A stretch of DNA of 64,000 nucleotides from an uncultured Gammaproteobacteria bacterium. Its GTDB lineage: Bacteria > Patescibacteriota > Microgenomatia > Daviesbacterales > UBA10151. The number at the start of each line of letters is the position of its first letter. The stretch's first letter is position 1. The stretch covers positions 165,585 to 229,584 of the forward strand of contig CAYMRP010000001.1 in assembly GCA_964392925.1 (NCBI GenBank), read 5' to 3'. Below, one piece after another: positions 3,190 through 5,244 of the stretch. The translations under genes and the position numbers were made by a program. The notes beneath the pieces are model-generated. The model searched no databases. It was not told the DNA's origin and saw only the letters and a program-made list of their open reading frames with translations.

Positions 3190-4104
3190 ATGTATATTAC
3201 ACCTATGGCTGACAGAAAAACATTCCATCCTGAATTATATAGAGACGCTGCTATCCCTTTGTGGGAGAGGTCCAGAATTATAAAAGATCATATAGAGAAA
3301 TCCCTAATAACAGAGTCGAGTGAAAGATCTCTCCTTATGGGTTTTTCAGATCTTAGATTTACCTGGGGTCGTTATAACCGTAGCCAGGAGCGGGAGTTCG
3401 AGCTTCTCGAATGGGAAAGGCAAAGACAAGCAGTACTCATTGCAGGTATAGCCTCCGGTTTAGGAATTAAAGAGCAGGATTGCTTCGATTTACTTCCGGA
3501 CAAATTTCCTGAGCGGTTAGAATCTTATAATAGATTAGGACTGGACACCCCTCTACTCGTTCCCAGGTTTACGAGAGTATCATGGGCAAGCGCTGTTCAT
3601 GCAGCAAGCGAGACAACTTTTTATCCTGAGGCGGTAACATTAGATTATGATCTAGATCCTTCTAGGGTTGGGGAATGGCAGGATCCGAGAGGTGTTAAGA
3701 TCCCCCAGCAACCTTTCGCGACATGGATAAAGATCCCTCCTGTTGTTCAGTATGATATTTATCCTGATAAAGACTCTCTCCAGCGAATTCGCAATCCGGA
3801 AATAGACGAAGTTGCCGAAGCTCCGGCAATTGCAAGAGTTATATTAGATCCCGATGCTAGAGGTGCAACTCACTGGGATGGACTAGCCTTGGGCTCTTTG
3901 AGGAGGGAATCAGCCCCCATAAGATTCACAGCAATGAATCTTCATGATCTAATAGGGTCGCGAATAGGAGAATATGGTGTTTTATCCTTACGTAAACCCC
4001 TCTCGGATGGAGGACCTTCCTGGCTAAGCAGGACACACATAGATGATGATCCAGAACAAAGAACGCCGGTTATCTGTAGCAGAGAAGTAACTACGAGACA
4101 ATAA
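3190..4104 (+). CDS. hypothetical protein, G+C-richer orphan (likely real start at 3205 MADRK...)
   Basis: Long ORF with visibly higher G+C than neighbours; TTGACT-16-TATATT promoter-like element just upstream; stop codon fused to a 21-bp copy of the tRNA-Asp 3' end. Confidence 0.5.
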   Translation: MYITPMADRKTFHPELYRDAAIPLWERSRIIKDHIEKSLITESSERSLLMGFSDLRFTWGRYNRSQEREFELLEWERQRQAVLIAGIASGLGIKEQDCFDLLPDKFPERLESYNRLGLDTPLLVPRFTRVSWASAVHAASETTFYPEAVTLDYDLDPSRVGEWQDPRGVKIPQQPFATWIKIPPVVQYDIYPDKDSLQRIRNPEIDEVAEAPAIARVILDPDARGATHWDGLALGSLRRESAPIRFTAMNLHDLIGSRIGEYGVLSLRKPLSDGGPSWLSRTHIDDDPEQRTPVICSREVTTRQ

Positions 4105-4122
4105 ATGCGAGACCGACGGGAC
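4102..4122. repeat. 21-bp direct repeat copy of tRNA-Asp 3' end (taaatgcgagaccgacgggac); second copy 4231-4251
   Basis: Identical 21-mer at 4102-4122 and 4231-4251; the second copy is the genuine 3' end (T-stem/acceptor) of the minus-strand tRNA-Asp. Confidence 0.8.
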
Positions 4123-4201
4123 AACACGCACTTTTCCTGCGTAAAAGCCGAACTCCTCAAACTTTGTTTGATATTTCGACTCCCTTGCTGGTCTAATTTC
4201 C

Positions 4202-4230
4202 AAAAAAGCCCAGACAAGCTGGACTTTTTG
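4202..4230. terminator. bidirectional intrinsic terminator (A-run, short GC hairpin, T-run)
   Basis: aaaaaagcccagacaagctggactttttg lies between the convergent ORF 3190-4104 and tRNA-Asp. Confidence 0.45.
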
Positions 4231-4236
4231 TAAATG

Positions 4237-4508
4237 CGAGACCGACGGGACTCGAACCCGCGACCTCCTCCGTGCATGAAATCCAATACTTTCGTAATGG
4301 CATGGACTATATCTTCACCTTTCCTAAAAGGTTTAGGTGCTTCGGTATCTAGTCTCTACGGCGCTCCGCCAAATTCTGGCGGTTCCCACGGTGTTCACAT
4401 ATCTTTCGACTTAGTCTTCACCGTTATCCCGAAATTATTCATCCTAAAGTTTCCTTTAGAAGCTGCACGTCTACAGGGAGGCGCTCTAACCAACTGAGCT
4501 ACGGCCTC
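4237..4508 (-). tRNA. tRNA-Asp (anticodon GUC) interrupted by a 198-nt group I intron; exons 4473-4508 and 4237-4274
   Basis: Exon 1 gaggccgtagctcagttggttagagcgcctccctgt and exon 2 cacggaggaggtcgcgggttcgagtcccgtcggtctcg-g rejoin to a canonical tRNA with anticodon loop CUGUCAC. 3' half matches E. coli tRNA-Asp (GGUCGCGGGUUCGAGUCCCGUC); discriminator G73. Confidence 0.8.
4275..4472 (-). ncRNA. group I intron (small IC3-like, Azoarcus tRNA-Ile-intron-like) in anticodon loop between tRNA positions 35/36
   Basis: 5' exon ends in U; intron begins AGACGUGCAG with GCAG able to pair with exon CUGU (P1, U-G at splice site); intron ends in G. Contains GUAGAGACUAGA, the element found in the P7/J8-7 region of the Azoarcus intron; no ORF inside. 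Confidence 0.7.
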
Positions 4509-4528
4509 TCGCAACTATGCCATATCCC

Positions 4529-4556
4529 ACGCTCTGCGCGCTGAGCTACGGCCTTA
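4529..4556 (-). repeat. degenerate duplicate of tRNA-Asp 5' region (acceptor/D-arm: ggccgtagctcag..gagcg)
   Basis: ctgagctacggcc and gctct blocks repeated 43 nt upstream of the real tRNA 5' end; overlaps last codons of the LAGLIDADG ORF. Confidence 0.6.
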
Positions 4557-5244
4557 AAATACTTTTCAAACCTTTATCATACTTCAGCCTTTTTCTTTCT
4601 AGGTGAGGTAAAACTAAATTAGGGTATAAAAAGTCATACAATTCTACAACATCCTTTCCACTATAAGCAAGGCTATAGGCACCGCTATGGAAATATAATG
4701 ATCCCACACCTATCCCCAATAATGCTGCTATCTTGGATCGTATGGTTTCCAAAAAAATCCTATTGCCGCATCTAAGATTCAAAATAAAATAATTGATCAC
4801 TCCCGTCCTGTCTTTTCTTGCTGAACTATTAAAGTAAATTGAACCATCTCCATCAAAATATCCTCTGATAAAATGTCCGAGAAATGAGTCTGGGATAGGG
4901 GGGAATATTAACGTTTTACTTTTAGCTGGAGTAAAACCAATCTCACCAAATCTGTTAAATAGTTTCTTGCTTCCAATTTGGAGAGAATAACTAGTTTTAA
5001 AATTACCTGCTCGTTTATAGACCTCTATTTTATTAGTTAATTTTAATAATATTTGGATGGTTAATATAAGCTGATAATCAGTTGAAGTAAAAGCCACATA
5101 ACAAGATCCCCTCTTGTTCTTATACATGCACCCATCAGATGCAAAAAGACCTAAGACATATGCACACTCAGCTGACCAAGTATTAAAGAAGCTTTCCACA
5201 TATCTTGGATTTAGGATCATCCCTTTGCATATTTTACCACTCAA
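4546..5244 (-). CDS. LAGLIDADG homing endonuclease (double-motif, free-standing)
   Basis: Two dodecapeptide motifs: LGLFASDGCMY and IRGYFDGDGSIY; size 232 aa typical of monomeric two-domain LAGLIDADG enzymes. Confidence 0.8.
   Translation of the reverse strand: MSGKICKGMILNPRYVESFFNTWSAECAYVLGLFASDGCMYKNKRGSCYVAFTSTDYQLILTIQILLKLTNKIEVYKRAGNFKTSYSLQIGSKKLFNRFGEIGFTPAKSKTLIFPPIPDSFLGHFIRGYFDGDGSIYFNSSARKDRTGVINYFILNLRCGNRIFLETIRSKIAALLGIGVGSLYFHSGAYSLAYSGKDVVELYDFLYPNLVLPHLERKRLKYDKGLKSILRP

Follow-up and report, generated by a model that had tools for sequence, protein, structure and literature searches.

A tRNA-Asp(GUC) gene interrupted at position 35/36 by a compact group I intron in a Daviesbacteria-like genome, and its association with a predicted LAGLIDADG endonuclease family at tRNA 5' edges

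The closest described counterparts of the element reported here are the group I introns in transfer RNA (tRNA) genes of Patescibacteria, which were surveyed in 95 complete genomes by Nakagawa, Amikura, Omae and Suzuki (mSystems 2026; PMC13011429; bioRxiv 10.1101/2025.07.03.662931). Such introns were found at position 35/36 in 15 tRNA-Asn(GUU) and 3 tRNA-Asp(GUC) genes, and standard tools were reported either to miss these genes or to call tRNA-Asp as Ala(UGC) with an intron at 33/34. The tRNA-Asp 35/36 intron of GCA_001029755.1 self-splices precisely in vitro, and a mutant in which the terminal guanosine (omega-G) is changed to C is blocked in exon ligation (PMC13011429). Covariance models assigned subgroup IA to 25 of the 28 introns at 35/36 and subgroup IC to none of the Patescibacteria tRNA introns, and the first report of the 35/36 site was credited to tFind (Williams 2020, bioRxiv 10.1101/2020.01.27.920355), which raised the number of bacterial tRNA intron types from 4 to 21. 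Here, we analyzed a stretch of 64,000 nucleotides (nt) of contig CAYMRP010000001.1, hereafter referred to as the window, and conclude with high confidence that it holds a functional gene for tRNA-Asp(GUC) in which a 198-nt group I intron without an open reading frame (ORF) separates U35 from C36, in a Daviesbacteria-like Patescibacteria host. We further describe a predicted LAGLIDADG homing-endonuclease gene that lies directly upstream and weigh how the two elements may be connected.

The gene lies on the minus strand, as do all other features of the window given below unless stated otherwise. Exon 1 (4473..4508, 36 nt) reads GAGGCCGUAGCUCAGUUGGUUAGAGCGCCUCCCUGU and comprises the acceptor 5' strand, the D-arm, the 5' strand of the anticodon stem and C32 U33 G34 U35, with CCUCC-CUGU at its 3' end. 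The intron (4275..4472) opens with AGACGUGCAG and closes with UUUCAUG. Exon 2 (4237..4274, 38 nt) reads CACGGAGGAGGUCGCGGGUUCGAGUCCCGUCGGUCUCG, starts with CAC-GGAGG and supplies C36 A37 C38, the 3' strand of the anticodon stem, the variable loop, the T-arm, the acceptor 3' strand and the discriminator G73 at 4237; CCA is not encoded in the gene. Joining the exons gives a 74-nt tRNA with the anticodon loop CUGUCAC, the anticodon GUC and a T-arm as in E. coli tRNA-Asp, and this in silico spliced sequence folds in ARAGORN into a clean cloverleaf carrying the E. coli-type identity elements G73, G10 and C38. Run on the unspliced locus with introns allowed (option -i), ARAGORN reports tRNA-Asp(gtc) with an intron length of 198 at position 37. 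The first-pass annotation of the window had described two exons separated by 198 nt that rebuild a textbook tRNA-Asp with the loop CUGUCAC and G73, a 5' exon ending in U, an intron ending in G and no ORF inside it. Its coordinates and sequence details all proved correct on the reverse complement and with ARAGORN, and 198 nt is too short for an endonuclease gene.

Close relatives of the window organism were gathered with the neighbouring PolX gene as anchor (handles with the prefix L denote individual loci), and close relatives recovered in this way carry uninterrupted tRNA-Asp genes. The spliced window tRNA matches the intact tRNA-Asp of L202 and L204 at 74/74 positions and that of L201 at 73/74, and exon 1 agrees exactly with positions 1-36 in L202 and L204. 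This identity fixes the insertion point at 35/36, and the uninterrupted genes show that the intron is polymorphic among close relatives, whose PolX identity to the window is 82% in L202, 80% in L204 and 77% in L206. The closest intron-bearing relative recovered through the PolX anchor is L206, and its intron is 94% identical to that of the window, compared with 66% for the spacer downstream of the tRNA and 67% for the upstream endonuclease gene. The high intron identity may reflect either strong constraint or a recent intron exchange independent of the endonuclease gene. All named PolX relatives are titled 'Candidatus Daviesbacteria', a lineage within the Microgenomates group of Patescibacteria, and the window shares its gene order (GDSL lipase, LysM protein, tRNA-Asp gene preceded by the LAGLIDADG gene, PolX and LemA) with the Daviesbacteria loci L037, L023, L042 and L206. 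The relatives and the gene order thus agree with the reduced-genome lineage that had been proposed from the sequence.

To place the intron among its homologs, we scanned one genome per GTDB species with a pattern composed of the P7 3' strand motif followed by G, CAC and a T-arm at tRNA spacing. The scan yielded at least 119 species-level loci with the tRNA-Asp arrangement, nearly all titled as Patescibacteria lineages (Paceibacterota, Saccharibacteria, Daviesbacteria, Zambryskibacteria, Kaiserbacteria and others), and all counts on intron-bearing loci below refer to the matches listed among them. We extracted 114 homologous introns of 194-276 nt from other genomes at the same tRNA-Asp site, none of them long enough to code for a protein, and aligned them with the window intron in MAFFT (alignment A1; 115 sequences, each with 10 nt per exon). 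A hand-drawn P1-P9 model of 60 pairs was scored on A1, and controls were obtained by sliding the 3' partners by 1-3 columns and by 500 shuffles. In the model, 86.9% of cells pair, compared with 39-43% when the partners are slid; both sides change in 42 of the 60 pairs, and none of the 500 shuffles matches the real alignment on any of five measures. The covariation lies far above both controls, and a chance origin of the arrangement is excluded.

The individual helices follow the group I plan. The internal guide sequence GCAG (4463..4466) pairs with the exon sequence CUGU (4476..4473) to form P1, in which the U35.G wobble sits at the 5' splice site; none of the four pairs varies among the 115 sequences, and the same pairing had been read from the window in the first pass. 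The P7 5' strand, G-(A bulge)-GACUA (4350..4356), contains the presumed guanosine-binding G-C pair and is part of GUAGAGACUAGA. It pairs with the 3' strand UAGUCC (4304..4309), which lies inside the conserved AAGAUAUAGUCC element and is supported by the Rfam RF00028 match as well as by the covariation alignment. The six P7 pairs (G-C, bulged A, GACUA/UAGUC) are invariant in the 115 sequences. The GUAGAGACUAGA motif had already been noticed and is indeed present, but its earlier placement in P7/J8-7 was wrong, as it corresponds here to J6/7 and the P7 5' strand. UUUCGG (4429..4434) forms the P3 5' strand and pairs with CCGAAG (4340..4345) in 94.6% of cells, with compensatory changes at 5/6 pairs, and P3 encloses P4-P6 and forms a pseudoknot with P7. 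P4 is paired in 95.1% of cells with 4/6 pairs covarying, and covariation extends to 4/5 pairs of P8 and 6/7 pairs of P9. Directly before omega-G, which can be read from the sequence as the final intron nucleotide (4275..4275), lie the 2 base pairs (bp) of P9.0 (4303/4276 and 4302/4277; 97% paired), with UA<->CG covariation in 23 sequences. P2 is paired in 59% of cells in the MAFFT alignment owing to indels, and visual inspection shows it as a hairpin with a GAAA cap in almost all rows; L9 is GAAA in 103/115 homologs. A strict pattern for the canonical 11-nt GAAA-receptor in P8 was found in 32/115 homologs and not in the window intron. Subgroup IA introns classically have extra P7.1/P7.2 helices between P7 and P3', and with about 4 nt at this place the window intron has none.

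A second intron type was observed at tRNA-Asp 35/36 in L016, L019, L048, L052, L061, L094 and L117 (A1 columns ~252-285). These introns differ in the P3-P6 region and carry a roughly 30-nt P7-P3' insertion that resembles P7.1/P7.2, typical of subgroup IA. One of the loci, L016, is titled Pseudomonadota.

A permissive scan of 3900..4800 (901 nt) with the RF00028 (Intron_gpI) covariance model gave a match on 4498..4283 with 41.5 bits and E = 5e-9, and this match, like the covariation-supported P3/P7 pseudoknot, bears out the group I assignment of the first-pass annotation. Several points weigh against a functional interrupted gene. The RF00028 score lies below the gathering score of 50, so the curated cut-off is not reached; the scan pattern required ATATAGTC and omega-G, and the invariance of the relatives at these places is partly a product of construction; no convincing P10 helix could be drawn, the best one having 3 bp and being unconserved; and tRNA-Asp copy number was assessed for 64 kilobases (kb) of the genome, leaving room for an intact copy elsewhere. 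RF00028 contains no bacterial seeds and performs poorly on such introns (PMC13011429; Williams 2020, bioRxiv 10.1101/2020.01.27.920355). The P7 5' strand and GCAG were outside the scan pattern, and their invariance was not forced by the search. Within the 64-kb window, ARAGORN found no second tRNA-Asp gene.

Anatomy, covariation, the exact exon junction and conservation are direct observations of our analysis, and on the sequence evidence 4275..4472 is a real group I intron that is almost certainly functional. By analogy with the published homolog, the window intron would itself be catalytic, and the gene is presumably the working tRNA-Asp gene of its genome. Under this reading, the gene would be transcribed as a precursor and the intron would fold into a canonical group I core, with P1 formed from exon CUGU and guide GCAG around the U.G wobble at the splice site and the fold completed by P2, P3-P8, P4-P6, the invariant P7 with its bulged A, P9.0 and P9. 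Free guanosine would attack after U35; the terminal G (4275) would then take its place in the P7 pocket and exon 1 would attack the 3' splice site. The expected product is the same tRNA-Asp that close relatives encode without an interruption.

Directly upstream of the tRNA and on the same strand, Pfam and homologs identify a free-standing, double-motif LAGLIDADG homing-endonuclease gene (4546..5244), which is absent from the first-pass annotation. The longest ORF has 232 amino acids (aa), and a public gene call on an identical sequence (L200) has 224 aa, in which case the start would be 5220. Pfam matches were obtained for LAGLIDADG_3 (PF14528; 56.1 bits, cut-off 22.5) and LAGLIDADG_1 (PF00961; 26.7 bits, cut-off 23.1), and NCBIfam gave no meaningful match for the endonuclease. 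Across 56 full-length LAGLIDADG homologs, the catalytic residues D37 and D133 never vary, and K108 is retained in at least 90% of them. The nearest solved structure in a profile search is 2dch (E = 9.5e-9), and there are weak profile matches to the bI3 maturase (2ab5) and I-AniI. Presence of the gene was counted at the 99 listed intron-bearing tRNA-Asp loci that have at least 800 nt of upstream sequence: 78 carry a same-strand homolog ending ~0-300 nt from the tRNA, and the gene was undetected at 20. In 56/79 cases, the ORF reaches into the tRNA and ends there on a TAG (U8-A9-G10 in 39, position 13 in 8, position 21 in 8 and position 37 in 1). In all likelihood, the gene constitutes a selfish element of its own. 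Within an incomplete literature coverage, which included the main text of PMC13011429, no account was found of LAGLIDADG genes adjoining the 5' ends of Patescibacteria tRNAs. That study looked for endonuclease genes inside introns only and inferred limited mobility, and the upstream LAGLIDADG gene does not appear in its main text.

In the window, the ORF abuts a hairpin, termed fragment A (4519..4554; minimum free energy -17.5 kcal/mol), rather than the tRNA. The first 13 nt of this hairpin (GGCCGTAGCTCAG) copy tRNA positions 3-15, and the LAGLIDADG stop TAG (4548..4546) falls within it, in the register ..AGG CCG TAG with the C-terminal residues L-R-P. The L206 ORF abuts the true tRNA in the same ..AGG CCG TAG register, which is small evidence that the tRNA 5'-end sequence may define the right-hand junction of the element. 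Fragment A has the appearance of a pseudo-target, or of a tRNA 5' end that was partially duplicated long ago. L201, a locus without the endonuclease gene, carries a related element upstream of its tRNA, and L204 has none.

To lift the selection for the intron, we then examined metagenome contigs (L120-L199) picked by the endonuclease family alone, taking the best 80 of >540 relatives as ranked by similarity to intron-linked queries. Among these best 80, the gene directly downstream of the endonuclease is an intact tRNA-Asp at 46 loci, an interrupted tRNA-Asp at 11, tRNA-Cys(GCA) at 10 and tRNA-Leu at 2. Among the 11 interrupted genes, one could be identified only by eye and two were mis-called Ala(tgc). 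The overlapping-stop layout is the same throughout, also at intact tRNA-Asp, tRNA-Cys and tRNA-Leu loci, and the Cys-linked endonuclease genes form their own subfamily at ~40% identity. For 19 of the 46 endonucleases beside an intact tRNA-Asp, the nearest relative is an intron-linked gene, which indicates that the intron state flips often. By this distribution, the family is tied to the tRNA gene 5' edge and not to the intron. Because it also adjoins intact tRNA-Asp, tRNA-Cys and tRNA-Leu genes, the predicted target of the endonuclease is probably the tRNA 5' edge rather than the intron site.

The endonuclease may carry the nearby intron along by co-conversion. According to this explanation, which we regard as plausible but less likely than not, the enzyme homes to the tRNA-Asp 5' boundary and the intron, lying 36 bp from that boundary (88 bp in the window), is often co-converted from a donor with both elements into a recipient with neither, so that an ORF-less intron gains indirect mobility. 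The stops inside the tRNA in 56/79 loci amount to a precise abutment on its 5' end, and the same architecture recurs at intact tRNA-Asp, tRNA-Cys and tRNA-Leu; the window ORF meets fragment A in the register in which the L206 ORF meets the true tRNA. About 12/79 endonuclease ORFs are truncated, as in the gain-decay cycle of homing endonucleases, and the 19/46 intact-linked genes nearest to an intron-linked gene point in the same direction. Intron frequency is also higher at endonuclease-linked tRNA-Asp loci (11/57) than among complete genomes (3/95; PMC13011429), with an odds ratio of 7.3 and p = 0.002, although the two samples are not strictly comparable. On the other hand, the target site is deduced from gene position alone, the association may reflect shared ancestry or sampling in view of how the metagenome contigs were ranked, 20/99 listed intron-bearing loci have no detectable endonuclease gene, and a crossover in fragment A of the window would leave the intron behind. 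We offer as a tentative proposal that a free-standing LAGLIDADG family in Patescibacteria homes to tRNA 5' edges, mostly of tRNA-Asp with sisters at tRNA-Cys and tRNA-Leu, routinely borrows U8-A9-G10 as its stop codon and, from 36 bp away, drags the ORF-less tRNA-Asp intron with it by co-conversion.

A stricter form of collaborative homing, in which the enzyme would cut the intron-less tRNA-Asp at the anticodon-loop site, the intron would split that site and protect the allele, and both would spread as a unit, was favoured at first and downgraded after the endonuclease-selected sample showed mostly intact tRNA-Asp; we now consider it unlikely. It accommodates an ORF-less intron beside a free-standing endonuclease gene with intact catalytic residues, as well as the presence of the gene at 78/99 listed intron-bearing loci, and among phage introns the concept is an established one (reviewed by Hausner, Hafez and Edgell 2014, PMC3984707). 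In the Daviesbacteria sample anchored on PolX, moreover, gene and intron are both present in the window and L206 and both absent in 7 lineages (L201, L202, L204, L207, L209-211 as one lineage, L213 and L214), with 0 discordant cases (Fisher p = 0.028). As the lineages with neither include the closest PolX relatives of the window, at least two joint changes are implied. Phylum-wide, loci discordant for the endonuclease gene and the intron are common. Against strict collaborative homing stand the 46 genes beside intact tRNA-Asp compared with 11 beside interrupted ones among the best 80, the sister subfamilies at tRNA-Cys and tRNA-Leu genes without an intron, and the 94% intron identity between the window and L206 as opposed to 67% for the endonuclease gene, which suggests that separate histories are possible. 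Cutting an uninterrupted anticodon loop would also be suicidal in most hosts, and for this reason the reading was rated low.

It is very improbable that the LAGLIDADG protein serves as a maturase, acting in trans on intron folding or splicing in vivo like some mitochondrial LAGLIDADG proteins. The gene adjoins the interrupted tRNA and is probably co-transcribed with it, a simple terminator scan showing no terminator between them, and the weak profile matches to the bI3 maturase and I-AniI would fit such a role. However, most family members lie beside intron-less tRNA genes, the invariance of both catalytic aspartates fits a DNA endonuclease, 20 listed intron-bearing loci are without the gene, and the homologous intron self-splices protein-free in vitro (PMC13011429). 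The weakest explanation, a dead pseudogene in which a disrupted tRNA-Asp copy holds a decaying insertion and the working tRNA-Asp is encoded elsewhere, could appeal to a view limited to 64 kb of the genome and to a gene left uncalled by standard tools, but it has next to no credibility and is not tenable given exons 100% identical to functional intact genes of relatives, an intron conserved at 94% where the neighbouring non-coding DNA is at 66%, compensatory changes that keep every variable helix, and published interrupted genes that are the sole tRNA-Asp copy of a complete genome (PMC13011429).

The tRNA is directly followed on its 3' side by a hairpin and a U-run (4202..4229; ViennaRNA -12.7 kcal/mol, then TTTTTT), together a probable intrinsic terminator; the simple terminator scan did not list it and gave no terminator after the tRNA. 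Fragment B (4102..4122) repeats 4231..4251, the tRNA 3' end with 4 nt of flank, exactly and in direct orientation over 21 nt. The two copies, 108 nt apart, enclose the terminator as well as a conserved 'gaccagcaaggga' spacer, an arrangement reminiscent of a repeated module or an att-site array. Fragment B is present in L202, degenerate in L206, found in several copies in L214 and noted too in L213. Because L202 has neither intron nor endonuclease gene, fragment B is ancestral in the lineage and not intron-related. Fragments A and B were at first considered as traces left by homing of the intron or endonuclease, or by integration of an island. A relation to the intron was rejected, as both occur in relatives without the intron and the endonuclease gene.

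On the plus strand, an ORF of 304 aa (3190..4104) has a stop codon that overlaps the 21-nt tRNA-end repeat. It has no match in Pfam or NCBIfam and is missing from the syntenic interval in L206, L202 and L037, which marks it as a window-specific insertion beside an att-like site. The tRNA-Asp-to-PolX interval of L204 (923-3004) contains zeta-toxin-like and HicA/HicB toxin-antitoxin genes, that of L201 (1611-2937) contains small unknown ORFs, and the tRNA is inverted in L207, L209-211, L213 and L214. Judging from these gene contents and orientations, the interval is a recombination hotspot.

The relevance of the intron itself lies chiefly in annotation. Default ARAGORN and an Rfam scan at the gathering threshold left both the gene and the intron at this locus unreported, and a genome in which the gene is missed would wrongly seem to be without tRNA-Asp, which would skew completeness estimates and metabolic inferences for Patescibacteria. 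With introns allowed, ARAGORN recovered tRNA-Asp(gtc) with an intron at 105/119 listed loci. Interrupted tRNA-Asp genes were mis-called as Ser, His, Tyr or Ala, or were missed, at L009, L014, L039, L041, L044, L136, L139 and L183, confirming the annotation problem reported in the literature. In L156, at ~110-380 nt past the endonuclease stop and beyond an intact tRNA-Asp, ARAGORN called a 'tRNA-Arg(gcg)' with a 190-nt intron; the same Arg(gcg)-type mis-call has been given for a divergent group I intron in tRNA-Thr(GGU) (PMC13011429).

The window intron is a further case of a published and experimentally validated kind that is widespread in Patescibacteria, and it is not surprising in itself. 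The first-pass view that a tRNA-Asp host would be unusual is outdated, since the class has been published with in-vitro splicing (PMC13011429) and occurs in at least 119 species-level genomes. The more interesting part is the upstream LAGLIDADG gene, found at ~80% of the listed intron-bearing loci, whose linkage offers a testable route by which ORF-less tRNA introns may spread in reduced genomes. It may also represent a family of tRNA-edge-targeting endonucleases in which Asp, Cys and Leu specificities can be compared. If co-conversion does occur, the introns would be mobile after all, contrary to the limited mobility inferred from the lack of intron-encoded endonucleases (PMC13011429).

Set against known systems, the window intron is closest to the introns of PMC13011429, with which it shares the tRNA, the anticodon, the site, the phylum, the U-1/omega-G boundaries and the absence of an internal ORF. 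Its 198 nt fall within the published range of 184-894 nt, and the annotation pitfall is the same, in that tools overlook the gene or call it Ala(UGC). The host genome, a Daviesbacteria-like draft, is not among the three complete genomes with a tRNA-Asp intron in that study. The introns of Azoarcus tRNA-Ile(CAU) and of cyanobacterial and plastid tRNA-Leu(UAA), which belong to subgroup IC3, are likewise compact (~200-250 nt), ORF-less and located in the anticodon loop of a bacterial tRNA. As in these introns, nucleotides of the anticodon loop make up P1, GAAA tetraloops form L2 and L9, and the window intron has no P7-P3' insertion; the GUAGAGACUAGA / AAGAUAUAGUCC-type core is presumably common to the Azoarcus intron. 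The site differs, being 35/36 here as opposed to 36/37 or 34/35, and so does the tRNA.

For the endonuclease, the nearest parallel is collaborative homing in phages, exemplified by the cyanophage psbA intron with its adjacent free-standing endonuclease and by T-even phages. In both settings, the interrupted gene holds a group I intron without an ORF and has a free-standing endonuclease gene at its side, and among the close relatives sampled here the two elements are either both present or both absent. Here, in contrast, the enzyme is of the LAGLIDADG type, the genome is cellular, and the family overlaps the 5' end of the tRNA. The endonuclease is also commoner beside intron-less targets, which argues against the intron insertion site as its target. 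The protein itself resembles the intron-encoded LAGLIDADG enzymes of archaeal and Patescibacteria ribosomal RNA introns (2dch), sharing a single chain with two motifs, a length of ~220-230 aa and conserved catalytic acidic residues, whereas here the gene stands free outside the intron and the stop codon of the family is supplied by the downstream tRNA gene.

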